Virus genome (UHGV): UHGV-1980648
DNA from: a virus
Reading direction: 5' to 3' (one strand)
DNA: 12,883 bases
The notes under the pieces are model-generated. The model was not told the DNA's origin and ran no database searches. It was given only the letters and a program-made list of their open reading frames with translations. Each line of letters starts with the position of its first letter. Positions within the stretch are counted from its first letter, which is position 1. The position numbers and the translations under genes are program-made. Positions 1-12,805 of the stretch are shown in pieces.

Positions 1-50
1 ACACGCCGTACACCAGAGATTCGTTGTTGCCAAGCTCGATAGTATCCATG
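1..50 (-). CDS. Partial CDS (first 16 codons only; gene runs off the left edge), hypothetical early-left gene
   Basis: Minus-strand ATG at 50-48 with GAGG about 5 nt upstream; translation MDTIELGNNESLVYGV...; lies downstream of a strong leftward promoter. Not recognisably lambda N. Confidence 0.3.
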
Positions 51-120
51 CTGACCTCATTTCCCCTTAACGCCGGGTGGCGGAACTAAAACCTACAGCG
101 CCGTGCTGTTCTTGATAGAA

Positions 121-149
121 ATATTAGTAACGCGGATATTTTAAGTCAA
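121..149 (-). promoter_or_regulatory. Leftward sigma70-type promoter (pL-like)
   Basis: On the minus strand: TTGACT (complement of 144-149), 17-nt spacer, TAATAT (complement of 121-126); AT-rich context; drives the gene starting at 50. Confidence 0.45.
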
Positions 150-246
150 CAGTATGGCGTATGATATTTTTGATTTGGTAACTATGTAAATGTTTTTTCA
201 AGGGAAAAATATTAGTTATACAGCTGATTTGCAGAAGTTATGGCAC

Positions 247-277
247 AAAAAAACCGACTAAGACGTCGGTTTTTTTG
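247..277. terminator. Bidirectional intrinsic terminator downstream of the repressor gene
   Basis: A7 tract, hairpin CCGAC-taagac-GTCGG, T7 tract (aaaaaaaccgactaagacgtcggttttttt). Confidence 0.6.
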
Positions 278-302
278 TTGTGGATGGGGTAGTGAGCGGT
301 GG

Positions 303-764
303 CTACTGGTTACGTTTCTTTAGTGCCAGCATGTTCTCGAAGGCTTCCTCGTAGAGCTTGTTTAGTCCACGTAGCTGGTTAAGGAGTTTGGCTTTTTCTG
401 ACGCAGGTAGAATCTCGAAGAGGTTAAGTAACTCTGCCTGTTCTTCATTGACCAGCCTCCATCCTTTGCCTGAAAAGTTATCATCATAAGTATCTGATGA
501 TCTTACATAATTCATTAAGTCTTTAAGGTCTTCTCGAATGTCCTCTGGTTTTACCTTTAACAGAGCCGCAAATTTTAGCGCAGCGTCGGTATTTACCGGT
601 ATCTTGCCGTTCAGATACTGGCTAACGGTGCCTTGAGATTCGAATCCCAACAACTCAGCCGCCAGCTCTTGAGTCAGCTTCAGCTCTTTTTTTCTTGCAT
701 TCCATGCGGCTTTTAAATTCTTGCTCGCTTCTGGAGTTGCAATCACTTCGCGTGTTTTTTTCAT
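303..764 (-). CDS. Phage repressor, XRE-family HTH, CI-like but without an S24 peptidase (autocleavage) domain
   Basis: 153 aa; N-terminal HTH LTQELAAELLGFESQGTVSQYLNGK; C-terminal helical region with no Ala-Gly/Ser-Lys peptidase motifs; divergent from the Cro-like gene; start ATG at 764 has almost no leader, as with lambda cI from pRM. Confidence 0.75.
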   Translation of the reverse strand: MKKTREVIATPEASKNLKAAWNARKKELKLTQELAAELLGFESQGTVSQYLNGKIPVNTDAALKFAALLKVKPEDIREDLKDLMNYVRSSDTYDDNFSGKGWRLVNEEQAELLNLFEILPASEKAKLLNQLRGLNKLYEEAFENMLALKKRNQ

Positions 765-812
765 ACATAGAGTTTATTTGTTTTACCAATATTATCAAAG
801 ATAGTCTGGCTA

Positions 813-841
813 TTGATCTTTAAAATTAGCGGGGCTAATAT
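813..841 (+). promoter_or_regulatory. Rightward early promoter (pR-like) within the 765-865 operator/promoter region
   Basis: TTGATC (813-818), 17-nt spacer, TAATAT (836-841); precedes the Cro-like gene, whose RBS is GAAGG. Confidence 0.5.
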
Positions 842-865
842 TTGCTCGAGGCATAACGTAGAAGG

Positions 866-1147
866 TTGGCTATGAACTTAAGAGACTATTTAAAAGAGAA
901 ACATATCACCCAGCTACAGTTTGGGAAGCTAACGGGTTTATCTCAGGTGCATGTAAGTCGAGTGCTGGGGGGCTATGAAAGATTCAGCCCTGAAAAAGCA
1001 TTACGTGTTGCTGAAGTAACGAATTTCGAGGTTACACCTCATGAACTCCGGCCTGATATTTACCCGAATCCAACCGACGGCTTACCTGTTGGATTCAAGG
1101 CTAACACACCAAATGCATCGGAGTTGATTCATGAAAATCAGGCATGA
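866..1147 (+). CDS. Cro/YdaS-like HTH regulator
   Basis: 93 aa; HTH motif LQFGKLTGLSQVHVSRVLGG; first gene of the rightward operon, divergent from the repressor. Confidence 0.7.
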   Translation: MAMNLRDYLKEKHITQLQFGKLTGLSQVHVSRVLGGYERFSPEKALRVAEVTNFEVTPHELRPDIYPNPTDGLPVGFKANTPNASELIHENQA

Positions 1148-1556
1148 GCACATCCGCATGGCGATGAATGCCTGGGCGCATCCGGACGGTGAAAAAGTTC
1201 CGGCAGCTGAAATAACCCGGGCTTATTTTGAGCTTGGTATGACGTTCCCGGAATTATATGACGACAGCCATCCGGAAGCCCTGGCTCGCAATACCCAGAA
1301 AATTTTCCGCTGGGTGGAGAAAGACACTCCTGATGCGGTTAAAAAAATTCAGGCGTTGTTACCAGCGATCGAAAAAGCAATGCCGCCTCTGCTGGTGGCC
1401 CGAATGCGCAGCCACAGTTCAGCTTATTTTCGGGAGCTGGTGGAGACGCGGGAACGACTGGTGAGAGACGCTGATGATTTTGTCGCAGTGGCGATCGCTG
1501 GTTTCAACCAGATGAATCGTGGTGGCCCTGCAGGAAATATTGTGGCTGTGCATTGA
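1131..1556 (+). CDS. YdaT-like protein (CII-position regulator of Rac-type immunity regions)
   Basis: 141 aa; start overlaps the Cro-like stop by 17 nt; GGAG RBS; the Cro-like/YdaT-like/initiator order matches Rac ydaS-ydaT-ydaU from memory. Confidence 0.55.
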   Translation: MKIRHEHIRMAMNAWAHPDGEKVPAAEITRAYFELGMTFPELYDDSHPEALARNTQKIFRWVEKDTPDAVKKIQALLPAIEKAMPPLLVARMRSHSSAYFRELVETRERLVRDADDFVAVAIAGFNQMNRGGPAGNIVAVH

Positions 1557-1627
1557 CTCGCAATATTCATACCGGATCACTTCCGGCAATTTGTGAGTAA
1601 AAAGATTCGGTATCAGAAGAGGTGAGT

Positions 1628-2668
1628 ATGGCTAACGCCTGGCTCAGATTATGGCATGACATGCCAAATGACCCTAAGTGGCGAACAATTGCCAGGGTGT
1701 CAGGGCAGCCAATTGCAACAGTGATGGCAGTGTATATCCACCTTCTGGTGAGCGCGTCACGAAATGTCACGACATGTCACGGCGTGTCACTACGTGGTCA
1801 CATTGATGTCACGACGGAAGATTTAGCAAGTGCGCTTGATGTGACGGAAGAAGTAATTGATTCAATTTTACAGGCAATGCAGGGGCGGGTACTTGATGGA
1901 GATTTAATCACCGGATGGGAAAAACGCCAGGTACTGAAAGAGGACAATGGCAACGTTTCACAAACCGCGAAATCCCCGGCAGAGCGCAAGAGAGCGCAGC
2001 GCGAGAGGGAAAAATTACGAAAACAGAATGAGGGGTGTCACGACGAGTCACGCATATGTCACGACATGTCACGACGAGTCACGACAGATAAAGATACAGA
2101 TAAAGAATTAAACCCCACACATAACGCGCACGTGCGCGAGAGTGCTCCGACCAGTGAGTCGAGTGGTACGCCGTTGCAGGCAGCAGAACCTGCATCCCTG
2201 GATGGACTGAGCGAACCCATCGGGAAATTTCCGATGGTCGATGACTGGCATCCGTCGCCGGATTTTCGACGACGGGCTGCGTTGTGGGGGATGGCTTTGC
2301 CGGAGCCGGAATTTACACCTGCTGAACTTGCCGCTTTCCGGGACTACTGGGCAGCGGAGGGGAAAGTTTTCACGCAGGTTCAGTGGGAGCAGAAATTCGC
2401 CCGTCACGTAAATCACGTCAGGGCGCAGGTTAAGCCAGTCAGCAAGGGGGTAAACCATGCAGCAGCACCAGGTGGCACCGCATCACGGGCAGTTCAGGAA
2501 ATTCGGGCAGCACGTGAGCAGTGGGAACGTGAAAACGGATTTATCAGCGACGGAAACGGTCTGGAAGCTGTGGGAACTCATGGGGGAGGTTTATTCGAAC
2601 CGCTGGACCCAGAAGAACGGGGCCGCACCTTCGAAGCTCTGGATTGCACAGATTGGCGCGATGACTGA
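1628..2668 (+). CDS. Replication initiator / replisome organiser (functional O analogue, YdaU-like) with internal origin iterons
   Basis: ATG at 1628 with GAGGTGA RBS (the ORF track starts at a GTG at 1622); 346 aa; two iteron clusters inside the ORF; the next gene is a lambda-P-like helicase loader. Confidence 0.6.
   Translation: MANAWLRLWHDMPNDPKWRTIARVSGQPIATVMAVYIHLLVSASRNVTTCHGVSLRGHIDVTTEDLASALDVTEEVIDSILQAMQGRVLDGDLITGWEKRQVLKEDNGNVSQTAKSPAERKRAQREREKLRKQNEGCHDESRICHDMSRRVTTDKDTDKELNPTHNAHVRESAPTSESSGTPLQAAEPASLDGLSEPIGKFPMVDDWHPSPDFRRRAALWGMALPEPEFTPAELAAFRDYWAAEGKVFTQVQWEQKFARHVNHVRAQVKPVSKGVNHAAAPGGTASRAVQEIRAAREQWERENGFISDGNGLEAVGTHGGGLFEPLDPEERGRTFEALDCTDWRDD
1754..1815 (+). repeat. 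Iteron cluster 1: six GTCAC(GAC/GGC) repeats at roughly 10-11 bp spacing, putative ori
   Basis: gcgtcacgaaatgtcacgacatgtcacggcgtgtcactacgtggtcacattgatgtcacgac; helical-turn periodicity; located inside the initiator gene, as lambda ori is inside O. Confidence 0.6.
2037..2085 (+). repeat. Iteron cluster 2: five GTCACG(A)C repeats at 10-11 bp spacing
   Basis: gtcacgacgagtcacgcatatgtcacgacatgtcacgacgagtcacgac; same core as cluster 1, about 220 bp downstream. Confidence 0.6.
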
Positions 2669-3122
2669 GCAGCAAATCCGACAGGTCTGCCGCCAGTGCA
2701 TGGACCGCTGCCGGGCGGGTGAAACATGGCCTCCGGACCTGGCTGAGTTTGTGGCGCTGATTTCAGAAAGCGGGGCCAATCCATTTGGCCTGACGGTGGA
2801 TGCTGTGATGGAGGAGTACCGCCGCTGGCGTGATGAGTCCTGGCGATATGACGGAAGCGACAAATATCCGTGGCCTCAGCCTGTGCTGTACCACATCTGC
2901 CTCGAAATGCGTACCAGAGGGATTGAGCGCCAGATGACGCAGGGTGAGTTAAAACGACTTGCGGAACGGCAACTGACGAAATGGGCAAAGCATGTTGGTA
3001 ACGGGATGAGTGTTCCGCCAGTGCGACGACAACTGGAAGGGGCGAAACACCCGCAAGGGCCAACGCCAATTGAACGGCTGAAACAGGAATACGAACGCCG
3101 GAAGGCAGCTGGTTTTATTTGA
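2457..3122 (+). CDS. Lambda P-like replicative helicase loader
   Basis: Resemblance to lambda P by eye (ETWPPDLAEFVALISE...YPWPQPVLYHICLEMR...GELKRLAERQ against lambda P ...PSPGQFVAWCREE...YPWKSNAHYWLVTNLYQNMR...). ATG 2457 has an AAGGGGG RBS, but the ORF overlaps the initiator by 212 nt; alternative in-frame starts are 2580 and 2661, the latter forming ATGACTGA with the initiator stop. Confidence 0.7.
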   Translation: MQQHQVAPHHGQFRKFGQHVSSGNVKTDLSATETVWKLWELMGEVYSNRWTQKNGAAPSKLWIAQIGAMTEQQIRQVCRQCMDRCRAGETWPPDLAEFVALISESGANPFGLTVDAVMEEYRRWRDESWRYDGSDKYPWPQPVLYHICLEMRTRGIERQMTQGELKRLAERQLTKWAKHVGNGMSVPPVRRQLEGAKHPQGPTPIERLKQEYERRKAAGFI

Positions 3123-3155
3123 ATCTGAGAAACGATTTTGTCGGAGGAAATTTTA

Positions 3156-3926
3156 ATGGAAACCGTATTTGACGCACTGAAAGCAATGGGAAAAGCCACA
3201 TCGGTAGAACTGGCCGCGCGACTTGATATCAGTCGTGAAGAGGTTCTCAACGAGCTGTGGGAACTCAAAAGAAAAGGCGTCGTTGATAAAACTGGTCACA
3301 CCTGGTTTCTGGCTGGCGAAGGTGAATCCCGGGTAACCGAAGAGCGGCCAGTAAAATCTGAAGCACAGGATATGCTGACCGGGGAGGTCGAACAAAAAGT
3401 TACCGCAGACATGATGATTGAGTTTATCGGTCAGGATGGGGCTAAAACGTGTGAGGAACTGGCGGGTAAGTTCGGTGTCAGTACTCGCAAGGTTGCTTCC
3501 ACGCTGGCGGTGGTAACCGCAACGGGGCGGCTGGCACGCGTTAATCAGAACGGTAAATTTCGTTACTGCATGCCGGGCGATAATTTACCAGCAGAGCCGA
3601 AAGCCGCGCTGGTAACGGAAAGTGATGGTAAGGCCTTTCCTCAGCCAGCAGGTGCTGCGTTACCAGTCCGGGAAGCCGCAACACAGGAAGAAATTAAAAC
3701 AGAAACTGTGGCGGACATTGTGCAGTCGTTGCCATCGTTTACCGAAACGCAAGCAGATGAGCTGATTTTTCCGTCCCTGCGCAGGGCAAACCTGGCGCTG
3801 CGCAGGGCGAAAAGTGATGTTCAGAAGTGGGAGCGAGTCTGCGCCGCGCTGCGGGAGCTGAATAAACACCGGGATATTTTCAGTTCGATTGCTGATATTC
3901 CGGTTCATTCACCGACAACAAAGTGA
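3156..3926 (+). CDS. Hypothetical protein with two winged-helix-like segments (resembles the DUF1627-type proteins found after P in lambdoid prophages)
   Basis: ATG 3156 with GGAGG 7 nt upstream (the ORF track starts at a TTG at 3138); internal duplication [17 protein letters not shown] / [17 protein letters not shown]. Confidence 0.5.
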
Positions 3927-3941
3927 TCTCCGGAGGTGCTT

Positions 3942-4373
3942 ATGACAAGAGCATTTACACCAGAAGAGCGGGAAAAAATTAAGGGGCTGATCGTGGAATT
4001 CGTACGCCTTAACGGACGAGGCACGATTCGGCAGTTATCGGATGAAATTGGTGTCAGTCATGCGTCTGTCGGTCGTTTATGCATGGAGCTGGCCGCCAGT
4101 GGTGATGTTTACAATTCCGGTTACGGAGTATTCCCGTCTGAACAGGCTCGTAAGGACTGGCAAAATGCCCGCAAAAAACTCTCAAGGGCAAAGTCGAAGA
4201 AACCGGTTGTCGTTGATCCAGACCTTATCCGGGCATTACCAGATGGGGAAATACGGCGCTACGACAGACGCTACAACACAATTTGTCGCGAGTGCCGTAA
4301 CAGCGAAACGATGCAGCGTGTGCTGGCATTCTGGCGAGGGAGTGCAGAGGGATTGATGTTCTCCCCGTCGTGA
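3942..4373 (+). CDS. Hypothetical protein, N-terminal wHTH-like, Cys-containing C-terminus
   Basis: ATG 3942 with GGAGG 5 nt upstream (the ORF track starts at a GTG at 3936); 143 aa; segment IRQLSDEIGVSHASVGRLCMELAASG. Confidence 0.5.
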   Translation: MTRAFTPEEREKIKGLIVEFVRLNGRGTIRQLSDEIGVSHASVGRLCMELAASGDVYNSGYGVFPSEQARKDWQNARKKLSRAKSKKPVVVDPDLIRALPDGEIRRYDRRYNTICRECRNSETMQRVLAFWRGSAEGLMFSPS

Positions 4374-4405
4374 ATGACGGGGGCTTACGTGTTCAGAAAA
4401 GTGAT

Positions 4406-5080
4406 TCATATAGAGGCTGAATCTGATCTTTTTTGTTCACGTCTGGCTTCCACCATTGCAGGCAGAGTGAAGGCGTAGACTAAAAACATTTCGGTAAAAC
4501 TCAGGATCTGGCTTGCCTCAATTGGTGTGAAAACTTCATCTGTATGAACTGCTTTATTGGCATCAATTCGTACAATATGAGCCCATTCCTTCATCTGTTC
4601 AGTGATCAGGCCTTTTTTGTAAATCATCTGAATACGTTGCGACAGCGATTCTTTTCCTGCTTCATCGCCGAGCAGTTTTTTCGTGGAGATATCGAGGACT
4701 CTGCGACAAAGAATAACCACTGTGTCGTACCGCCTCCTCTGTAAATCCTCTTTTGCCTCAACAAAAGTACGGTCTGCAACCGGGGGCGTATATTCTGGTG
4801 CGGTAATTTTTTTGACCACAGGATAGATCTTGCGGAAACGGTACTGGCTATTTCCTGAAATCAGAATATCGAGGTCTTTTTTCTGGCTTTCCGCCATGGG
4901 ACCGTGATAGTGGTCTGATGGGATTTCAACAATAGCAACACCTCCTCGATGACAACTTCTGCATACAAAAGCGACGTTAAAAAAAGGTGTTTTTTCAATT
5001 TGTTTTTCGGCAAATGCCTCAATAACAGCTCGCTCTTTTAAACAGTGCGGGCATGTGATATCAAAGGAGACTAAACCCAT
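4406..5080 (-). CDS. Zinc-ribbon plus DUF4145-like domain protein; candidate defence / abortive-infection cargo gene
   Basis: 224 aa from the ATG at 5080 (GAGGAA RBS); N-terminal CPHC...x26...CRSC zinc ribbon; C-terminal helical region LSQRIQMIYKKGLITEQMKEWAHIVRIDANKAVH resembles DUF4145 from memory; opposite orientation to the flanking phage operons. Confidence 0.6.
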   Translation of the reverse strand: MGLVSFDITCPHCLKERAVIEAFAEKQIEKTPFFNVAFVCRSCHRGGVAIVEIPSDHYHGPMAESQKKDLDILISGNSQYRFRKIYPVVKKITAPEYTPPVADRTFVEAKEDLQRRRYDTVVILCRRVLDISTKKLLGDEAGKESLSQRIQMIYKKGLITEQMKEWAHIVRIDANKAVHTDEVFTPIEASQILSFTEMFLVYAFTLPAMVEARREQKRSDSASI

Positions 5081-5324
5081 GGATATTCCTCGCGAAATTA
5101 AAGAAATTAACGAAATCATTGAGGTTACTGATCGCCCCGAGTTTACCCTCATGCGTCGTTATGAAACAGGAACCGACGAACAAAAATACATCATGGTTGC
5201 AGCATTGGCTGTGATGGCGATAGAAAGGGAGCGAAGGGAAAAGGACGTAATGGTTATTCCTGAGAGAAATGATTCACCGGATTTGAGATGGCAGGAGCCG
5301 GAGTGGGATGTGGTAATCCGGTGA
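5079..5324 (+). CDS. Small acidic hypothetical protein (81 aa), divergent from the zinc-ribbon gene
   Basis: ATG 5079 with AAGGAGA RBS 8 nt upstream; its start codon overlaps the minus-strand start of the 4406-5080 gene within CATG; no recognisable domain. Confidence 0.3.
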   Translation: MDIPREIKEINEIIEVTDRPEFTLMRRYETGTDEQKYIMVAALAVMAIERERREKDVMVIPERNDSPDLRWQEPEWDVVIR

Positions 5325-5378
5325 TTGATATTTCTCTGGGGTAAAGCGCCGCCAGAATGACGGCGCGGTAGTGGAGAG

Positions 5379-5687
5379 TTAAACGAAGCGGATCTGGAGT
5401 TTTTTCCCTGTAGCACGGGCGAATTTTTTCAGTGTGGCAAATGATGGGCCGCTTGTACCTGATGCAAGATTGCTTTCCATTCTGGTTATCGCAGTCGCTT
5501 TTGTTCCCATACGTTCAGCAACTTCAGCCTGGGTTAAGCCAGCTTCTTTTCGTGCTGCCAGCATTTCATCAAGTAGTGCGAATTCATCGGCGATGGCGTC
5601 GTATTCTGCTTTTACTGCGGGGTTAGACAACATTTTTTCTACCATTTCATCGTGTGTCATGGTAGGTGGGGTACGTTTACCAGTCAT
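5379..5687 (-). CDS. XRE-family HTH antitoxin (HigA-like)
   Basis: 102 aa; HTH LTQAEVAERMGTKATAITRMESN; AAGGAGG RBS; overlaps the upstream toxin gene by 11 nt. Confidence 0.8.
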   Translation of the reverse strand: MTGKRTPPTMTHDEMVEKMLSNPAVKAEYDAIADEFALLDEMLAARKEAGLTQAEVAERMGTKATAITRMESNLASGTSGPSFATLKKFARATGKKLQIRFV

Positions 5688-6006
5688 GCTTAACCTCCTT
5701 CATTCTGGTTTCAGCTTTTCTAAGCTCGGCAGGTGGAGTTTTTTGCGTTTTCTTTACAAAGCTATGCAACATAATGATTCGCTTTCCTTTTAGCGTGCAG
5801 TAAAAAACACGCCCTATGCCTTCCGAGCCCTTAAGGCGGATTTCAAACAAACCGTCGCCAAATGCCTCTGTATGCGGGGAACCAAGATTAGCTCCGTAAA
5901 TACGCATTTTCTCCGTGTACCGAATGTACCGGGCTTGTAAGGTCTCAGGAAGAGAAAGGATCTCAGCTTCAACCTCGTCACTGTAGTATTCGATAATGTA
6001 GTTCAT
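5677..6006 (-). CDS. RelE/ParE-superfamily toxin, phage Gp49-like / HigB-like
   Basis: 109 aa from ATG 6006 (alternative ATG at 6018); MNYIIEYYSDEVEAEILSLPETLQARY...FGDGLFEIRLKG...RVFYCTLKGKRIIMLHSFVKKTQKTP is typical of this family; toxin-first order with HTH antitoxin. Confidence 0.75.
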   Translation of the reverse strand: MNYIIEYYSDEVEAEILSLPETLQARYIRYTEKMRIYGANLGSPHTEAFGDGLFEIRLKGSEGIGRVFYCTLKGKRIIMLHSFVKKTQKTPPAELRKAETRMKEVKHDW

Positions 6007-6048
6007 GAGAGTAAACATAACAAATTTGTTATATACATTCAAGGTATG

Positions 6049-6078
6049 TTGACGACAACACATATCCGGGATTATATT
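6049..6078 (+). promoter_or_regulatory. Rightward sigma70-type promoter restarting the nin-region operon
   Basis: TTGACG (6049-6054), 18-nt spacer, TATATT (6073-6078); its -35 overlaps the -35 of a divergent minus-strand promoter for the toxin-antitoxin operon (TTGTCG, complement of 6053-6058, with -10 TATATA at complement of 6030-6035). Confidence 0.4.
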
Positions 6079-6140
6079 CTTCGCACGCCAGCAAAATCTG
6101 GCGTCGGGATTTGCACCCCGGATATTCAACCGCGACAGAC

Positions 6141-6162
6141 ACACGCCGCGAGCGTGTTTTTT
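6141..6162 (+). terminator. Intrinsic terminator or attenuator in the leader upstream of the ORF6N gene
   Basis: ACACGC-cgcga-GCGTGT followed by TTTTTTGTT; preceded by two further hairpins at 6086-6103 and 6104-6120. Confidence 0.5.
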
Positions 6163-6326
6163 GTTGTCGTAAGCACACGCACATCTGAATTATGGTGGGG
6201 CGTATGGGGGAGCCGAAAGGCTCGCCGGTTGGTTGATCCGGTAGTGCAAACCCTGTACGTCTCACCACCCAAAGATTTGCACCTGACGGTGGTGATAGTT
6301 AAATTCATCAACCAGAGGGCGTTGTC

Positions 6327-7028
6327 ATGGCGACTCAAATTTCCGTTGAAACTCTTTCCCCAATTGCCTACAACCAGATCCCCGTAATTACTACAGAATT
6401 ATTGGCGCAATTGTATGGCACTGAAACAGTCAATATAAAAATGAATTTTTCCCGTAACTCTGCGCGATTTGTACAGGGAAAACATTTCTTTAAGTTGGAA
6501 GGGAATGAACTACGTGAGTTTAAGCACAGACTATCTTTAAGCGAGTCTGTTAGCCGCGAGGTAACAGAAAGTTACTCTGTGAAAATCGCCCGCAATGTTC
6601 GCTCCCTCATCCTCTGGACAGAACGCGGCGCAGCCCGTCACGCAAAAATGCTCGAAACCGATCAGGCGAGGGAAGTGTTCGAAAAACTGGAAGACTGCTA
6701 TTTCAGCCAGGGAAAAACAGCACCAACCGAACAGCAGCCGCAGATTCAGCCACAATTCACAGCCGAGGAAATCATCCTCCTTTGCTACATGCAACTCTGG
6801 ATGGAAAAAGCCCAGGACCTTAGCAAGCAGCTGTACCCCATAATGAAAGAGCTGAACTCCTCATACACGAACAAGCTGTATGACATTGCGTTTGAGACCA
6901 TCTACATGGTGACGAAGAACAGAGACGCGCTACTAAGGGAGGTAACACGTCTCGACATGTCAAGTTCCGTTATCCAGCGGGCCATGCCAATGCTGAAAAG
7001 CCTGCGGGCAAGACAATTTGAATTCTGA
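6327..7028 (+). CDS. ORF6N-domain protein, putative antirepressor-like regulator
   Basis: 233 aa; N-terminal IPVITTELLAQLYGTETVNIKMNFSRNSARFVQGKHFFKLEGNELREFK...LWTERGAARHAKMLETDQAREVFEKLEDCYF fits the ORF6N pattern from memory; GAGGG RBS. Confidence 0.55.
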   Translation: MATQISVETLSPIAYNQIPVITTELLAQLYGTETVNIKMNFSRNSARFVQGKHFFKLEGNELREFKHRLSLSESVSREVTESYSVKIARNVRSLILWTERGAARHAKMLETDQAREVFEKLEDCYFSQGKTAPTEQQPQIQPQFTAEEIILLCYMQLWMEKAQDLSKQLYPIMKELNSSYTNKLYDIAFETIYMVTKNRDALLREVTRLDMSSSVIQRAMPMLKSLRARQFEF

Positions 7029-7033
7029 AACTA

Positions 7034-7058
7034 AAGGAGCTTCGGCTCCTTTTTTGTT
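7034..7058 (+). terminator. Intrinsic terminator between the ORF6N gene and ninB
   Basis: AAGGAGC-ttcg-GCTCCTT followed by TTTTTTGTT. Confidence 0.55.
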
Positions 7059-7082
7059 GGGAAAATCCAGTGAGAGGGAATA

Positions 7083-7493
7083 ATGAACCAGACTATCTTC
7101 CTCCGAAGTAAGCAGCAGCAACAATTCGCCATTAACGCCATCCTTGCAACAACTCTCGATAAAGACAAACCCGTTACGATCCGTATCACCGATTACAAGC
7201 GTAATCTCGCTCAAAATGCAAAATTTCACGCGATGGTCGCTGATATATCCCGCCAGGTTAAGTGGTGCGGCAGGGGGCTAAAACCAGAACAGTGGAAAGT
7301 TTTGTTAATCAGCGGTCATGCCGTGGCGACAAAACAGGAAGCTGATGTTTTGCCAGGTCTTGAAGGTGAATACGTCAATATCCGCGAAAGCAGTGCGCAA
7401 ATGAGCGTGAAGCGTATGGCAAGCCTGATTGAGTACACAACATCCTGGGCCGTGGATCAGGGTGTCAGATTTACCGACAGGAGGTACGAATGA
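7083..7493 (+). CDS. ninB: NinB (Orf-family recombination mediator)
   Basis: 136 aa; [30 protein letters not shown] aligns by eye with lambda NinB NRKLWACLGDVSRQVEWHGRWLDAESWKCV. Confidence 0.85.
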
Positions 7494-7612
7494 GACGACA
7501 GCGACGAAGCATCACCGATATCGTCTGTGAAAACTGCAATTACCTTCCAACCAAACGCTCCCGAAATAAACCCAGGCCAGTCCCCAAAGAATCTGATGTT
7601 AAAAACTTCAAC
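7490..7612 (+). CDS. ninE: NinE-like small protein, 3' end lost in the assembly gap
   Basis: ATGA overlap with the ninB stop; [41 protein letters not shown] runs straight into the N run; identity from memory of lambdoid NinE and the ninB-ninE-ybcO-rusA synteny. Confidence 0.5.
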
Positions 7613-7625
7613 NNNNNNNNNNNNN
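7613..7625. other. Assembly gap (13 N)
   Basis: Run of n characters in the sequence. Confidence 1.
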
Positions 7626-7694
7626 TATCCGGTGGCTAAGGCGTCGAGCAAGATTTAATTGTCACTCCGGATAGCCTACTGCATGAGGAATAAG

Positions 7695-7988
7695 ATGATG
7701 ACAAACCTACGCAAAGAAGCGCGCGGCAGAGAATGCCAGGTACGGATTTATGGCGTATGCAATGGCAACCCTGAAACTACAGTTCTGGCGCATTACCGAA
7801 TGGCTGGAATTTGCGGAACGGGAACAAAGCCAGATGATCTGTTGGCTGCATGGGCCTGTAGTGACTGCCATAATGAAATCGATCGCCGTACTCGCATTCT
7901 CGACAACAACGACGCCAGACTTTACCACCTGGAAGGCGTGATCAGGACGCTGGCGATATTGCTGAAGGAGGGAAAGATTAAGTCATGA
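7695..7988 (+). CDS. YbcO-like protein (DUF1364 family, putative nuclease)
   Basis: ATG 7695 with GAGGA RBS (the ORF track starts at a TTG at 7659); RKEARGRECQVRIYGVCNGNPETTVLAHYRMAGICGTGTKPDDLLAAWACSDCHNEIDRRT matches the YbcO family from memory. Confidence 0.75.
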   Translation: MMTNLRKEARGRECQVRIYGVCNGNPETTVLAHYRMAGICGTGTKPDDLLAAWACSDCHNEIDRRTRILDNNDARLYHLEGVIRTLAILLKEGKIKS

Positions 7989-8347
7989 ATGAATATGAGT
8001 TTGTGCTTCCCTGGCCGCCGACGGTGAATACCTACTGGCGAAGACGGGGAAGCCAGTACTACATCAGCGATAAAGGCCAGAAATACCGAAAAGACGTACA
8101 GCAAATCATCCGGCAACTCAGATTAGACATTTTCACTAAATCACGACTTCGCATCACAATTATTGCTGAACCACCAGATTCCCGCCGTCGCGACCTCGAT
8201 AACATCCTGAAAGGTTTACTCGACTCTCTTATCCACGCCGGATTTGCGGAAGACGACGTGCAATTCGATGACATTCGCGTAATTCGCGGCGTGAAAGTGC
8301 TTGGCGGTAGAGTGGGGATAAAAATCACCGAACTGGAGAACATATGA
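7985..8347 (+). CDS. rusA: RusA Holliday-junction resolvase
   Basis: 120 aa; LPWPP...RRRDLDNILKGLLDSLIHAGF...DDVQFDDIRV matches RusA (LPWPPSNN...[21 protein letters not shown]); ATGA overlap with the preceding gene. Confidence 0.9.
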   Translation: MNEYEFVLPWPPTVNTYWRRRGSQYYISDKGQKYRKDVQQIIRQLRLDIFTKSRLRITIIAEPPDSRRRDLDNILKGLLDSLIHAGFAEDDVQFDDIRVIRGVKVLGGRVGIKITELENI

Positions 8348-8544
8348 ACGCCACAATTCAAACAATACCGGAATTGCTTATCCAGGCACGAGGCAATATG
8401 ACTGAAGTTTCACGAAAACTGAACTGTAATCGTGCTACGGTCAGAAAATATGTCGGTGATAAAGAAGGCAAACGGCACGCCGTCGTCAACGGTGTCCTTA
8501 TGGTTCATCGTGGATGGGATAAGGGGAAAGCTACTGATGCGTGA
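8344..8544 (+). CDS. ninH: NinH-like protein
   Basis: 66 aa; TIPELLIQARGNMTEVSRKLNCNRATVRKYVGDKEGKRHAVVNGVLMVHRGW closely parallels lambda NinH from memory; ATGA overlap with rusA. Confidence 0.8.
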   Translation: MNATIQTIPELLIQARGNMTEVSRKLNCNRATVRKYVGDKEGKRHAVVNGVLMVHRGWDKGKATDA

Positions 8545-8779
8545 TATTCAGCAGGTGCCTGAACGCATGGCTTTATTCAGGTCGTCTGGAAAAGCGCATG
8601 AGCAGCGTAATAGCGGAGTTCATGGCGAAGAGTATATGAACAGATTATTCGAATGCTATATGAGACTGAAGCACGGAGATCGCTATGACCTGACACGTGA
8701 TGCTGACGGTTTCTACTGCCGTGAAGTTGTGAAACGAATGTTTGAAGTGTGGTGTCATTGTAAAGGATGGGGGCTGTGA
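8537..8779 (+). CDS. Hypothetical Cys-rich protein, translationally coupled to the next gene
   Basis: ATG 8537 (MRDIQQV...) with AAGGGGA RBS, overlapping the ninH stop; 80 aa; its stop overlaps the next start as TGATG. Confidence 0.4.
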   Translation: MRDIQQVPERMALFRSSGKAHEQRNSGVHGEEYMNRLFECYMRLKHGDRYDLTRDADGFYCREVVKRMFEVWCHCKGWGL

Positions 8780-9393
8780 TGCGGCTAACCCCAGTATTCG
8801 GCATGGTTAACTTTATTAATGATGCTCATTTCCGCCGCATATGGAGGCATCCGAAGAAAATCATTAACTCTCGTCAGAAAGCATGGGTTCACTACATGCT
8901 ACAGGTATGGGGAAATGTTAACGCTGGTGATGATTCTCCTTGTGGTGCAATTAACGTTATTGGGCGACTGATGATTCGCAGTCAGTGGAGCGATGACAAA
9001 GCTAAGCAGATTGAGTCTGTTGTCATGCGTCTGTATGAAGAAGACGGACTACGTGGAGATGAACTCCATCAGAAAGCCCGAGAACTGGTCATCCCTCAGT
9101 CATCGGCAGGTAATATCATTGCTCTCGCCAAAGAATCCGATGATGCTGCTTTCGTTGAACGTGTGATGGTTGAGACCTTTCATCGTGAAAGCCCTGTCCG
9201 TGATGTAGCTATTAGGCGATATTGCAATCGCGACAGCACGCAAGATATCGCCAGGATGATTTCTCAGATAACAGGAGTTGATATTCAGTATTGCCGGAGG
9301 CGGGTCGTGTGGTGCGAGAGGGTCCTTGATTCAGAAATGTTTTATGCAATGAAGCGAGAATTGGAGAAAGAACTTCTAGTGATTGCTGGATGA
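8779..9393 (+). CDS. Putative late-gene antiterminator (Q-position protein); identity by position only
   Basis: 204 aa from ATG 8779 (the ORF track starts at 8767); last gene before a pR'-like promoter and tR'-like terminator; no clear similarity to lambda Q by eye. Confidence 0.35.
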   Translation: MRLTPVFGMVNFINDAHFRRIWRHPKKIINSRQKAWVHYMLQVWGNVNAGDDSPCGAINVIGRLMIRSQWSDDKAKQIESVVMRLYEEDGLRGDELHQKARELVIPQSSAGNIIALAKESDDAAFVERVMVETFHRESPVRDVAIRRYCNRDSTQDIARMISQITGVDIQYCRRRVVWCERVLDSEMFYAMKRELEKELLVIAG

Positions 9394-9417
9394 TGCAAAA
9401 TATTTTTTGTAAATGCG

Positions 9418-9446
9418 TTGCTTTCGAGAAATGAAAGTAGTATGTT
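9418..9446 (+). promoter_or_regulatory. Late promoter candidate (pR'-like)
   Basis: TTGCTT (9418-9423), 17-nt spacer, TATGTT (9441-9446), starting 25 bp after the stop of the Q-position gene. Confidence 0.4.
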
Positions 9447-9553
9447 TTGTGTATGCTCGGAGCAAAAGCGCACTGAGAAGCGAAAGAGAAATCCTGATTT
9501 ACCTCGGTCGTCGATAATATTTAGGATCGGCATACTGGCTAGATTAGGTAAAG

Positions 9554-9584
9554 GCCTCGGCAGAAATGTCGGGGCTTTTTGTTT
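9554..9584 (+). terminator. tR'-like intrinsic terminator
   Basis: Hairpin 9554-9575 (GCCTCGGC-agaaat-GTCGGGGC, two G-U pairs) followed by TTTTTGTTTG. Confidence 0.5.
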
Positions 9585-9657
9585 GCACAACAGGTAAGAG
9601 CATTGAACCCGCAGACCTCGTGGAATTGGTGAAAGGTGTGCGCAGTGCTCTTATCGT

Positions 9658-9784
9658 TGTGGTGAAGCTCAATGGCGAGCTAGCAGACAGGCGACTGTGA
9701 AAATACTAGTCATGTAGCGGATCGCCGCGCGTATTGTAATCGGCAGCGCACCGATGGGAGCTGGTTCGATTCCGGCCGCCACAA
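9658..9784 (+). other. tRNA-like element: degenerate or insert-bearing tRNA, possibly an ileX/ileZ-like remnant
   Basis: Canonical T-arm GCTGG-TTCGATT-CCGGC at 9760-9776; 3' acceptor CGCCACA pairs with TGTGGTG at 9658-9664; D-arm-like GCTC-aatggc-GAGC; AGGCGACT resembles the E. coli tRNA-Ile2 anticodon stem; no canonical anticodon arm and length about 127 nt. Confidence 0.25.
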
Positions 9785-9926
9785 TCCAAACTGAGCCGTA
9801 GCCTCTGGGTGTCCTGAATTCATCAGTGATAGTTACGCTGCGGCCTTCTACATACGATTTTTGTGAAAAGCGGGTGGCAAGAGGCTGCGAAATTTTTAAA
9901 TACCTCACAATTCCACAGCTTGATGA

Positions 9927-10123
9927 TTGTCTGGCTGCCGGAGAATTTGTTAAAAATTGCATCGCGTGGTGAATCCCCCTCAGCGGCGGGGCATCTGGCA
10001 AAGTGTATGATCCAGCGAACATGCAAATTCAGTAGCCAGGCTGAATTTACCGGGAGGCACCTGGCACCATGCGACAGACAGAAATTAGGCTATACTTCAG
10101 CCCCTCTCCGGAGGGGCTTTTCT
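9927..10123 (+). repeat. Paralogous unit A: promoter-like box, structured core, intrinsic terminator (candidate small RNA gene)
   Basis: TTGTCT (9927-9932), 17-nt spacer, TTAAAAAT; core closed by CGCGTGGTG (9963-9971) pairing with CACCATGCG (10065-10073); internal hairpin AAATTCAG/CTGAATTT; terminator at 10099-10123. Confidence 0.5.
10099..10123 (+). terminator. Intrinsic terminator of unit A
   Basis: GCCCCTC-tccg-GAGGGGC followed by TTTTCT. Confidence 0.6.
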
Positions 10124-10312
10124 GTGCAGGATGTGTCACAGTTTCCTGAATTCTGAGTACTGTCCTGTTACTCAGGGTGCTATATTTTCTGACGTGATGA
10201 AAGTCTGCCGGAAGGCGGAACGTATCGGAAATGACCCAGTAGAGAAAACGTTGACTCAGATACCGATGCTGAGTTACCGGGAAACCGGCATCACATGACC
10301 GCTATCCTTCCA

Positions 10313-10335
10313 GGCTCGCTCCGGCGGGCCTTTTT
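10313..10335 (+). terminator. Intrinsic terminator, a third copy of the terminator module with a covarying stem
   Basis: GGCTCGC-tccg-GCGGGCC followed by TTTTT; flanking sequence (gctatccttccag...) is homologous to the 3' ends of units A and B. Confidence 0.55.
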
Positions 10336-10395
10336 ACTGCAGAAAACAGTTTTCCCGTAAAATGCCACGTTACTCACAATTCAGGCTGGCGATTA

Positions 10396-10606
10396 TTGTC
10401 TGGCCAGCGGGAAGTTTGTTAAAAAAATATGGCATGGTGAATCCCCCTGTGCGGAGGGGCATATCAGCGACAGGTGTTTGGTCACACCCCTTATCCTTTC
10501 TGGTGCGGGTTCAGGTGCTGATACTGAACTCACCGGGAGGCACCCTGCACCATGCATGAACGGTACATAGCGCTACTCTCCAGCCCCTCTCCGGAGGGGC
10601 TTTCTT
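10396..10606 (+). repeat. Paralogous unit B: promoter-like box, structured core, intrinsic terminator (candidate small RNA gene)
   Basis: TTGTCT (10396-10401), 17-nt spacer, TTAAAAAAATAT; core closed by GCATGGTG (10432-10439) pairing with CACCATGC (10548-10555); internal hairpin GTTCAG/CTGAAC; shares blocks TGGTGAATCCCCCT and CACCGGGAGGCACC with unit A. Confidence 0.5.
10582..10606 (+). terminator. Intrinsic terminator of unit B
   Basis: GCCCCTC-tccg-GAGGGGC followed by TTTCTTGTTG. Confidence 0.6.
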
Positions 10607-10613
10607 GTTGGAT

Positions 10614-10643
10614 AAAAAAAAGCCCGCGCCGGGAAGCGCGGGT
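10614..10643 (-). terminator. Opposite-facing hairpin with A8 tract (possible leftward terminator, back to back with the unit B terminator)
   Basis: AAAAAAAA then CCCGCGC-cgggaa-GCGCGGG; on the minus strand this reads hairpin followed by a T8 run. Confidence 0.35.
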
Positions 10644-10843
10644 GGCAAGGAATAAACAACAAAACGTGAAGTGATCAATTTTCAGCTGGCGAATAATACC
10701 TGATAGTAATCACTCTGCGCAACTGTATGGTCTTTTTCGTATTGCGGGCTGTAGTCATCCTCCTGTTTCTGAACCCTTGTCCATGACTGACGTCAGCCCG
10801 CACCTTATCTTGATTGCATACACTATCCCTGCCGGGAGGAATA

Positions 10844-12805
10844 ATGGCATTTAAACACTATGACGTGGTCAGGGCATCATCGCCGTCAGACCTCGCAGGA
10901 AAACTGACGCAAAAACTGAAGGAAGGCTGGCAACCCTATGGTAGTCCGATTATCTCAAACGCGGGTTATGGTGCTGAATTTATCCAGGCTATAGTCGCTG
11001 AAGGGGATATGACCTCTCCGGTAGTTTCACCGGGGGGAGATGGTACCCGGACTGTTGTTGTTGAACCAGAATATTACTTTGTCATTGCGCTGGCCGGACA
11101 GTCAAACGGTATGGCGTATGGTGAAGGGCTTCCGCTGCCGGAGACATATGACCGTCCGGACCCGCGTATTAAACAGCTGGCGCGTCGCAGCACTGTCACG
11201 CCGGGTGGTGCGTCCTGTAACTACAATGACATTATTCCTGCGGACCACTGCCTGCATGATGTTCAGGATTTGAGTAAGTTTTCACACCCGAAAGCTAGCG
11301 CAGCTCAGTATGGATGCGTGGGGCAGGGATTACATATCGCGAAGAAATTGTTGCCGTTTATTCCGGCGAATGCCGGTATTCTTCTGGTTCCGTGCTGCCG
11401 TGGTGGTTCTGCATTTTTGGCGGGCGATGAAGGTACCTTCAGCGAATCCACCGGCGCAAGCGAGACCTCGGCACGCTGGGGTGTAGATAAGCCACTGTAC
11501 AAGGACCTGCTTACCCGTACTCAGGCCGCACTGAAGGCTAACCCTAAAAATATTCTGCTTGCAGTGGTCTGGATGCAGGGCGAGTTTGATTTGAAACAGG
11601 GTGCATACGCCACTCAGCCGGGGCTGTTTGATTCCATGGTGGAAAAATATCGTTCTGACCTGTCGGAATTCGGAGGTCAGTGTCTCGGGGGCTCTCCGTC
11701 ATCGGTTCCCTGGATTTGTGGCGACACGACCTACTACTGGAAGCAGACTTATTCTTCGCAATACGATGCGGTGTATGGTGCATACAAGACGAAATCCGCA
11801 AAAAAAATCTTCTTTGTGCCGTTTATGACGGATGAAAACGGGCGAAATGTGGGTACCAACGAGCCGTCAGAAGATCCGGATGTTGCGGATATTGGGTATT
11901 ACGGAGCCGGTGGTCGAACGGACGCCAAAACCTGGACGACGGCCGACCGTAAAACGCATTTTGGATCATGGGCACGTCGTGGGATTATTTCCGACCGTCT
12001 GGCAACGGCGATTCTTGTGCATGCCGGGAGAACCGCTGAATTCATTACCGGAAAACAGCCTGATACGGTGAAGCCCACCGGACCTTCCGGTGAAGGTACG
12101 GAGAGAGAGCCGGAAGCCCCGGTCAGTAACCGAACCCTGATGAGTCTGCTGGCGTCCGGCGAAGACCTGGCATCACAGGGCTGGCGCTATTATCACAAAC
12201 CGGCGAGCGGAGACAATGTTAACAAAAACATTGCTGAAGCGGTGGTCAGTGATGCGGGGGCTACGGGAGGTAAGGCCCTGCAACTGAATAAACCGGAAAA
12301 CCACATCTGGTTTCTGGAGCATGATGCAGCCGGACAGGGAGTGGAGTTACTGAAGAAGGGGGGACGTGTGAGCGTACGGTTTAAGTTGCCGGGTTCACTG
12401 GTGCCGAATCGGTTTGCCCTGGGCATTTACTGGCAGTTGTCGTCCCTGCCGGAGGGAGTGACGCTGGCAGAGGAAGGCAACGACATGCTGATGTCCTTCT
12501 TCCTGCAGACGGATGCGACGAACCTGAACGCGATGTACCACAAGAAGCCGAATGCGAAGCTGGATACGTTCGGGGTCTTTGATAACGGATGGCACACACT
12601 GGCTTTTGAGTTTGCCGGAAACAACAGCATTCAGGTGACGCCGGTACTGGATGAGAAACGGGGGACGCCGTTCACACTGGTGAAATCTCCGGCATCAGGG
12701 GCGGCGGACAAACTGCAACTGACAGGCATATCAAAGGCGGCGACATATACGCTGCTGATTGACAGTGTGAAGGTGGAAGTGAACAACGCGGATGCCGCGG
12801 CATGA
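10844..12805 (+). CDS. nanS-p: Prophage NanS-p-like sialate O-acetylesterase (N-terminal DUF1737-like domain, SGNH/SASA esterase core, C-terminal extension)
   Basis: ATG 10844 with GGGAGGA RBS (the ORF track starts at 10814); 653 aa; MAFKHYDVVRASSPSDLAGKLTQKLKEGWQPYGSPI N-terminus; LAGQSNGMAYGEG block typical of sialate O-acetylesterases; location downstream of Q and the late terminators matches Stx-type prophages, from memory. Confidence 0.8.
   Translation: MAFKHYDVVRASSPSDLAGKLTQKLKEGWQPYGSPIISNAGYGAEFIQAIVAEGDMTSPVVSPGGDGTRTVVVEPEYYFVIALAGQSNGMAYGEGLPLPETYDRPDPRIKQLARRSTVTPGGASCNYNDIIPADHCLHDVQDLSKFSHPKASAAQYGCVGQGLHIAKKLLPFIPANAGILLVPCCRGGSAFLAGDEGTFSESTGASETSARWGVDKPLYKDLLTRTQAALKANPKNILLAVVWMQGEFDLKQGAYATQPGLFDSMVEKYRSDLSEFGGQCLGGSPSSVPWICGDTTYYWKQTYSSQYDAVYGAYKTKSAKKIFFVPFMTDENGRNVGTNEPSEDPDVADIGYYGAGGRTDAKTWTTADRKTHFGSWARRGIISDRLATAILVHAGRTAEFITGKQPDTVKPTGPSGEGTEREPEAPVSNRTLMSLLASGEDLASQGWRYYHKPASGDNVNKNIAEAVVSDAGATGGKALQLNKPENHIWFLEHDAAGQGVELLKKGGRVSVRFKLPGSLVPNRFALGIYWQLSSLPEGVTLAEEGNDMLMSFFLQTDATNLNAMYHKKPNAKLDTFGVFDNGWHTLAFEFAGNNSIQVTPVLDEKRGTPFTLVKSPASGAADKLQLTGISKAATYTLLIDSVKVEVNNADAAA

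Follow-up and report, generated by a model that had tools for sequence, protein, structure and literature searches.

We analyzed a 12,883-nucleotide (nt) stretch of UHGV virus genome UHGV-1980648 (the window) and one gene within it, on the minus strand at 4406..5080, which codes for a protein of 224 amino acids (aa). Judged from sequence comparisons, this protein is a distant, divergent relative of RAZR, and we put the probability that the gene encodes a RAZR-like abortive-infection ribonuclease (RNase) carried as prophage cargo at roughly 0.68. RAZR, the ring-activated zinc-finger RNase of Escherichia coli UMB1727 (PDB 9Y9C/9Y6U), is the new name for PD-T7-4 (Zhang et al., Nature 2026, PMC13017515), which came from a functional selection in E. 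coli in 2022 (Vassallo et al. 2022, PMC9519451). In RAZR, a Cys4 zinc ribbon forms the N-terminus and a DUF4145 HEPN domain with the catalytic residues R146 and H154 forms the C-terminus, and alanine at either catalytic position abolishes defense (PMC13017515). RAZR gives abortive infection and is non-toxic alone, even when overproduced (PMC13017515). For activation, 24 copies assemble around phage rings made of an Erf-like recombinase or of portal protein, and non-specific cleavage of single-stranded RNA follows (PMC13017515). The zinc-finger domain (ZFD) varies more than any other region of RAZR, sets phage specificity, and binds protein, not DNA (PMC13017515). The inter-dimer salt-bridge residues D179, D180, and R184 are required for higher-order oligomers (PMC13017515). 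A defense role for the 224-aa protein is plausible on the strength of its homology to the experimentally characterized RAZR/PD-T7-4 and of its genomic context. Systems of this kind are already known: PD-T7-4 was described in 2022 and the RAZR mechanism in 2026.

Domain architecture of the 224-aa protein

The gene and the elements of its product are located in the window as follows.

4406..5080, minus strand: coding sequence (CDS) for the 224-aa zinc-ribbon and DUF4145/HEPN protein, 675 nt, TGA stop at 4408..4406
5086..5091, minus strand: Shine-Dalgarno-like GAGGAA, 5 nt before the ATG, read from the sequence
4901..5080, minus strand: ZFD, residues 1-60, Cys4 zinc ribbon (C10-P-H-C13, C40-R-S-C43), proposed sensor
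4784..4900, minus strand: connector, residues 61-99, a variable helix and strand followed by a conserved Pro-rich linker (P87, A94-P95-E96, P99)
4409..4783, minus strand: C-terminal DUF4145/HEPN RNase domain, residues 100-224
4544..4570, minus strand: predicted catalytic motif R171-I-D-A-N175-K-A-V-H179 (R-x3-N-x3-H, R-x7-H)

The gene is annotated as a 675-nt CDS in Escherichia phage PhiR5_2 and in Shigella phage 75/02 Stx. Its longer open frame extends to 5152; public records start at the ATG at 5080, and M1 at this codon is invariant in 26 of 26 aligned homologs, from a total of 83 that we found. This start and the GAGGAA upstream of it confirm an opposite-strand open reading frame (ORF) with its own ribosome binding site, as a preliminary description made from the sequence alone had read it. 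Comparison with a 71%-identical allele from a Shiga toxin gene (stx)-carrying E. coli prophage (locus L003) gave a ratio of nonsynonymous to synonymous substitution rates (dN/dS) of 0.30 at dS 0.69, which indicates that the gene is under purifying selection.

The four cysteines of the zinc ribbon, already recognized in the preliminary description, are invariant across homologs as distant as 37% identity. The CxxC...CxxC pattern is present in 114 of 129 full-length family representatives. An AlphaFold2 (AF2) model places beta-strands of the ZFD at residues 4-6, 20-27, 33-40, and 46-52, and profile searches returned weak matches of this domain to RPB9-type zinc ribbons. The ZFD varies more than any other part of the family, with a mean pairwise identity of 0.41 compared with 0.64 for the HEPN core. 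In the linker, P87, P95, and P99 are invariant in the homolog alignment.

Pfam matched residues 118-197 to DUF4145 (PF13643) with E=3.9e-9 and 36.9 bits (cut-off 23.1), which bears out a likeness to DUF4145 first seen by eye. DUF4145 is a HEPN family that is sometimes fused to zinc ribbons and occurs in double-stranded DNA viruses (Anantharaman et al. 2013). The predicted fold has the HEPN four-helix core and matches HEPN proteins, including 5yep and 7ae2. R171, N175, and H179 are invariant in homologs down to 37% identity, and the Rx3Nx3H motif was found in 118 of the 129 representatives. Its R-x7-H spacing differs from the canonical HEPN R-x4-6-H and equals the R146-H154 spacing of RAZR. The preliminary description had reported no visible nuclease or other catalytic motif and had expected any mechanism to be new. 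The first of these claims is wrong, because DUF4145 is a HEPN family and the protein carries R171, N175, and H179, aligned on the catalytic residues of RAZR. As DUF4145 is a family of HEPN RNases and the RAZR mechanism has been published, the mechanism is probably not new either; what looks new is a small conserved partner gene, described below.

The sole very-low-confidence stretch of the AF2 model (predicted local distance difference test score <50) is residues 173-177, in the loop between R171 and H179. In modeling terms, low confidence at this loop would fit an active site that is ordered only in a dimer or an activated assembly.

Homology to RAZR

We compared the 224-aa protein with RAZR-Ec (219 aa), which we rebuilt from database fragments and whose numbering we checked against the paper at V21, AGN68-70, R146, and H154. 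BLASTP aligned the two proteins only in the linker and the HEPN domain, with 24% identity across 141 aa (E=3e-5). Other single-protein searches returned little: phmmer against the PDB gave nothing even at E<=10, NCBIfam holds no model for the protein, and a BFVD fold search gave just two significant matches, both unnamed. Profiles carried the comparison further. The family profile matched PDB chain 9y9c_OA, placing R171 on R146 and H179 on H154, and hhalign of the two family alignments gave 90.8% probability (E=1.2e-6). N175 falls on RAZR N150 in the same motif, and P87, P95, P99, and E108-A109 align with RAZR P66, P74, P79, and E88-A89. The linker thereby aligns with the RAZR linker I-I-P66...L-P-N-P-D-M-P79, and its packing on the HEPN domain is a prediction from homology only.

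A family hidden Markov model (HMM) built from the 129 full-length representatives matched all 120 RAZR-family sequences; the matches fall into two segments, the ZFD (RAZR 14-54) and the linker with the HEPN domain (RAZR ~60-158). The representative P0390 bridges the two families, with E=2e-32 to the family of the 224-aa protein and E=9e-9 to RAZR residues 15-190. Through P0390, these sequence matches make a convincing, transitive case for full-length homology to RAZR. AF2 models of the 224-aa protein and of a RAZR-family protein agree in how their elements follow one another: a short strand, a knuckle, a hairpin, a second knuckle, strands, the linker, helices, the catalytic loop, and a long C-terminal helix. 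Both proteins are ~220 aa long with an N-terminal Cys4 ribbon that opens on the same C-P-H-C knuckle, and both are carried on a mobile element. Both ZFDs are also more variable than the HEPN core; in the RAZR family the identities are 0.46 for the ZFD and 0.86 for the core. This shared pattern matches the ZFD-determined specificity of RAZR. The family of the 224-aa protein is large: of 1.84 billion cluster representatives searched, 214 matched it at E<=1e-30 and as many as 1426 at E<=1e-10.

The two proteins also differ. The 224-aa protein adds a helix and ~15 residues between the ZFD and the linker, has one long C-terminal helix where RAZR has two, and lacks the conserved C-terminal MPEGxR...RD tail of RAZR. 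The RAZR gene typically overlaps a same-strand integrase gene and has no partner, whereas members of this clade lie antiparallel within prophage operons, often with a small ORF arranged head-to-head.

Public gene calls affect searches for RAZR itself. The RAZR homologs P0085-P0087 are called from an internal Met (~168 aa) and lose the first zinc knuckle; among the proteins retrieved with a 100-aa fragment of RAZR as the query, none exceeded 175 aa, and many came from gene calls truncated at the N-terminus. Surveys based on such calls would therefore under-count the zinc-ribbon architecture.

A conserved small ORF overlaps the start codon of the putative RNase gene

A second gene begins at the start codon of the RNase gene and runs in the opposite direction.

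5079..5324, plus strand: small partner ORF, 81 aa, phrog_8371, annotated in 75/02 Stx

Its ATG (5079-5081) overlaps the RNase ATG (5080-5078) by 2 nt, head-to-head, within the palindrome CCATGG. The 81-aa product matched phrog_8371 with E=7e-56, a family without an assigned function. We scanned 106 RNase-family loci from genomes and IMG/VR for this pairing and found a small-ORF homolog in the same start-overlapping divergent position at 64 of them. After dereplication by RNase, pairing was present in 32 of 52 clusters at 95% identity, with none mixed, and in 24 of 38 at 80%. The paired loci belong to Escherichia, Enterobacter, Symbiopectobacterium, Tatumella, Rosenbergiella, Photorhabdus, Paraburkholderia, and a Zoogloeaceae metagenome-assembled genome, so the pairing spans Entero- and Betaproteobacteria. 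The Paraburkholderia homolog is a 60-aa ORF at the identical position; it is 35% identical to the 81-aa ORF and also belongs to phrog_8371. In a reverse search with a single small-ORF sequence as the query, 32 of the 40 viral loci with small-ORF relatives carried the divergent RNase gene.

Only 4 substitutions separate the 81-aa ORF from its closest allele, too few for dN/dS, and we used 38 diverse sequences instead. Across these, the ratio of nonsynonymous to synonymous polymorphism (pN/pS) was 0.45 in frame versus 1.09 and 1.27 in the shifted frames, which indicates that the small ORF is protein-coding. These results bear on the proposal in the preliminary description of a single-gene abortive-infection candidate. 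The candidacy gains from the sequence homology to RAZR, but the conserved, start-overlapping ORF makes the single-gene part questionable.

The putative RNase gene occupies a variable slot in lambdoid prophages

The window belongs to a lambdoid (Rac/Stx-type) E. coli prophage. Over positions 4200-5400 it shares 100% identity with PhiR5_2 and ~98% with the Shiga toxin (Stx) phages Shigella phage 75/02 Stx and POCJ13. This stretch is present in 48 of 5426 complete E. coli genomes, chromosomal every time. The RNase gene lies between replication genes (P-like, DUF1627, DUF977/'Ren-like') and ninB and is antiparallel to both sides, confirming the position against the flanking operons that had been read from the sequence. 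Since the RNase gene opposes the phage operon, the small ORF has the operon's orientation, and phage transcripts must cross the whole RNase gene antisense before reaching the small ORF.

The family is found almost exclusively in prophages. We compared five independent contexts; all were prophage, and in each the gene was a lone ORF antiparallel to its neighbors.

Context 1, E. coli Stx-type phages: after DUF977/lygF, antiparallel
Context 2, Pantoea: between lysis genes and HNH/terminase, antiparallel
Context 3, Citrobacter: adjoining terS, antiparallel
Context 4, Enterobacter: adjoining int/xis, antiparallel
Context 5, Paraburkholderia: within the early-left operon, antiparallel

Both nearest flanking genes were antiparallel in 46 of 64 distinct loci.

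Comparison with related phages defines the RNase gene as a replaceable unit.

4333..5082, no strand assigned: exchangeable cassette, absent or replaced in phiSTEC1589-Stx1c, with both flanks shared

The blastn breakpoints against phiSTEC1589-Stx1c lie at window positions 4332 and 5083 and bracket exactly the RNase ORF. In that phage, a gene for a 166-aa protein (3699-4199 of locus L017) occupies the slot instead, and the small ORF persists there as an orphan whose N-terminus is altered. After lygF, Rac-SA53 and vB_EcoS-666R9 have different genes again. In vB_EcoS-683R6, the slot after lygF/DUF977 holds the IetA/IetS defense system (5940-9333 of locus L019; PADLOC 474 and 990 bits), which the public record labels merely as 'cell division protein FtsH' and 'S8 family peptidase'. 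The swapped genes, IetAS among them, and the low frequency of the RNase gene in E. coli support the earlier suggestion of a variable cargo slot. Since a relative carries IetAS there, the slot after DUF977/lygF emerges as a defense hotspot of Rac- and Stx-type lambdoid phages. The 166-167-aa slot proteins of phiSTEC1589-Stx1c and vB_EcoS-666R9 (5541-6044 of locus L020) have no Pfam or PADLOC match and are candidates for putative defense genes.

Proposed mechanism and alternative explanations

By homology to RAZR, the RNase would be present in a lysogen as inactive HEPN dimers or oligomers. On infection by another phage, the variable ZFD would bind a phage protein, which in the case of RAZR is a ring-shaped portal or Erf-like recombinase assembly. 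Binding would reposition the composite HEPN active sites and allow non-specific RNA cleavage, translation would stop, and the infection would be aborted. RAZR provides the precedent of a bacterial RNase that is activated by wrapping around large phage protein rings. A phage that carries a ring-sensing RNase makes such rings itself and therefore faces a self-killing problem on induction. If the RAZR-type mechanism is true here, the start-overlapping small ORF is a concrete candidate for avoiding self-killing. On prophage induction, read-through would yield a transcript that covers the entire RNase gene in antisense and from which the small protein is also made; together, the antisense RNA and the small protein would shut the RNase off and spare the phage from killing by its own ring proteins. 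It is possible, if somewhat doubtful, that the clade is a two-gene, head-to-head variant of RAZR in which the phrog_8371 protein (~60-80 aa) is an off-switch translated from the lytic-direction transcript.

A precedent for this arrangement exists in Staphylococcus aureus prophages. Tha is a HEPN RNase that aborts infection when structural proteins of an incoming phage trigger it (Rostol et al. 2024, PMC11087260). A small, overlapping, opposite-strand gene, ith, turns Tha off on induction and avoids autoimmunity (PMC11087260). The gene geometry is analogous here: the small overlapping opposite-strand gene is present, conserved, and coding, and its inhibitory function is proposed by analogy. Unlike the 224-aa protein, Tha has no zinc ribbon, and the two would not be expected to be related in sequence. 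The orientation also differs, as tha is part of the cI operon with ith antisense to it, whereas here the RNase gene is antisense and the small ORF runs along the phage operon. If the off-switch model is true, the clade would correspond to Tha/Ith but be Gram-negative, belong to the RAZR family, and use an unrelated inhibitor, and a prophage could carry a ring-sensing suicide RNase without dying from the portal or recombinase rings that it makes. Shiga-toxin phages are among the members of the clade (75/02 Stx, POCJ13, and the stx-carrying E. coli prophage).

Several observations weigh against a RAZR-like defense role or against the pairing with the small ORF. The ZFD segment by itself aligns weakly with RAZR (independent E-values of 0.001-0.016). 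The PADLOC model for PD-T7-4 gave the 224-aa protein 15.5 bits (E=0.0022) and did not call it; members of the clade score 13-28 bits, compared with 339 for RAZR-Ec-like and 337 for RAZR-Kv-like proteins. Standard defense annotation will therefore miss the clade, and the RAZR mechanism, if shared, may be commoner in prophages than annotation suggests. The salt-bridge residues of RAZR are not conserved, as D179, D180, and R184 correspond to Y202, A203, and L206 here, and higher-order assembly may therefore differ from that of RAZR. Y202, F204, L206, and P207 are invariant within the motif Y-A-F-T-L-P. In the papers searched, we found no experiment on the 224-aa protein or its clade, and searches with the phage names PhiR5_2 and PhiR12_3 returned nothing relevant. 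The small ORF is absent from ~40% of clusters and never accompanies the 'MAM...' subclade (212-aa proteins, most adjoining terS). All 8 exceptions among the 40 loci of the reverse search come from a single E. coli lineage of close relatives (91-93% identity); as in phiSTEC1589-Stx1c, no family gene was detected next to the small ORF. Its absence from ~40% of clusters and its orphan state in one E. coli phage lineage that lost the RNase gene indicate that the small ORF is not obligatory. It has no Pfam, PDB, or PADLOC match. Finally, strict and relaxed scans found no convincing sigma-70-like promoter in the 300 nt upstream of the RNase gene.

Expression of the RNase gene may come from read-through of a toxin-antitoxin (TA) unit instead of from a promoter of its own.

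5379-5687 and 5677-6009, minus strand: HigA-like antitoxin and Gp49/HigB-family toxin genes (HTH_3 and Gp49 matches)

These genes lie just upstream of the RNase gene on the same strand and code for a HigA-like helix-turn-helix (HTH) antitoxin (HTH_3, E=4e-11) and a Gp49/HigB-family toxin (E=5e-27). A GC hairpin with just a weak T tail follows higA, and higBA and the RNase gene could therefore share one minus-strand cargo transcript. The L003 prophage has another toxin family, HigB-like PF05015, at the equivalent place.

The HigBA-type module next door invites a comparison of the RNase and the small ORF themselves with a TA or addiction pair that stabilizes the prophage or the cassette, in which the small protein would be the constitutive antitoxin of a HEPN toxin. 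HEPN domains are common among TA toxins (5yep and 7ae2), and the two genes are tightly linked in a conserved geometry. We consider such a pair unlikely. The genes are divergent and not co-transcribed, which is atypical of type II TA systems, and the intact catalytic motif in partnerless clusters is hard to square with a toxin that depends on its antitoxin. The lack of toxicity of RAZR alone, even on overproduction, also argues against it. No signal of MNT or of any other antitoxin family was found in the small protein, and no MNT gene of a HEPN-MNT type II TA system was present in any context examined.

The failure to detect a lysogenic promoter upstream and the almost solely phage-borne distribution of the family would also suit an RNase that serves the phage during the lytic cycle, in turnover of host or competitor mRNA or in counter-defense, rather than a defense protein expressed in the lysogen. 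This explanation is quite improbable in view of the gene's orientation, which at most loci is antiparallel to the lytic operons and typical of lysogen-expressed morons. The gene is also accessory and swappable, a known defense system occupies the same slot in a relative, and the closest characterized relative is a host-protective abortive-infection protein. A zinc-finger DNA-binding regulator is very improbable. In its favor, PHROGs places the whole protein in phrog_1305 under the label 'DNA binding protein', which RefSeq also gives to gp19 of 75/02 Stx, and NrdR- and RPB9-type proteins that bind nucleic acids likewise contain zinc ribbons. The basis of this explanation is no more than a database label, however; a HEPN fold with an invariant catalytic R/N/H motif makes up two thirds of the protein, Pfam detected no HTH or other DNA-binding domain, and the zinc finger of RAZR binds protein.

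Comparison with known HEPN defense systems

We compared the RAZR-like RNase with other HEPN systems. HepS, from the Salmonella Gifsy-1 prophage, is a tetrameric anticodon nuclease triggered by the tail-tip protein J (Sargen et al., Nature 2026, PMC13043305; PDB 9OIK). It differs from the 224-aa protein in having no zinc ribbon and no sequence match to it, and self-targeting is avoided by a variant of J that does not trigger HepS, not by a partner gene. BxaP (PMC10799925), Ishtar (bioRxiv 2026.07.06.735840), and DS-38 (PMC13092281) resemble the 224-aa protein in using DUF4145/HEPN as the presumed RNase effector, but each has a different architecture. DUF4145 is N-terminal in BxaP and is followed by a HEAT-like C-terminus (PMC10799925). 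Ishtar has an N-terminal HEPN domain and a beta-rich C-terminal domain (bioRxiv 2026.07.06.735840). DS-38 (WP_001313577.1) has an N-terminal HEPN domain and multiple C-terminal zinc fingers (PMC13092281). We considered whether the 224-aa protein is DS-38, a HEPN and zinc-finger system validated in the DefensePredictor work, and rejected this identity, as DS-38 is 366 aa long with the domains reversed (PMC13092281).

Other features of the window

The window is a mosaic. The match to PhiR5_2 begins only at ~3136 and amounts to 94.6% across 3136-7600. The immunity and replication module at 1-3135, with a 348-aa DnaT DNA-binding-domain protein and a lambda-P-like protein, differs from the O/DnaC module of PhiR5_2. 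Further features were identified in the window.

6085-6162, plus strand: isrK (Rfam)
6188-6272, plus strand: C4 antisense RNA (Rfam)
6327-7028, plus strand: ORF6N/P22_AR_C antirepressor gene (domain matches)
10814-12805: nanS-p-like esterase (DUF1737, SASA, and DUF6645)

isrK (75 bits) and the C4 antisense RNA (74 bits) lie immediately upstream of the antirepressor gene, and together they form, within the nin region, a c4-ant immunity arrangement of the P1/P7 type. Between a presumed Q antiterminator gene (8767-9393) and the nanS-p-like esterase, positions 9394-10813 contain no long ORFs or tRNA genes. L003 has stxA and stxB in the equivalent region, and the window is therefore an stx-negative relative. 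Two copies of the small RNA family STnc100 lie within this interval, at 9934-10127 and 10403-10612. A run of 13 N (masked or unidentified bases) at 7613-7625 falls inside a ninE-like ORF between ninB and a YbcO-family gene.

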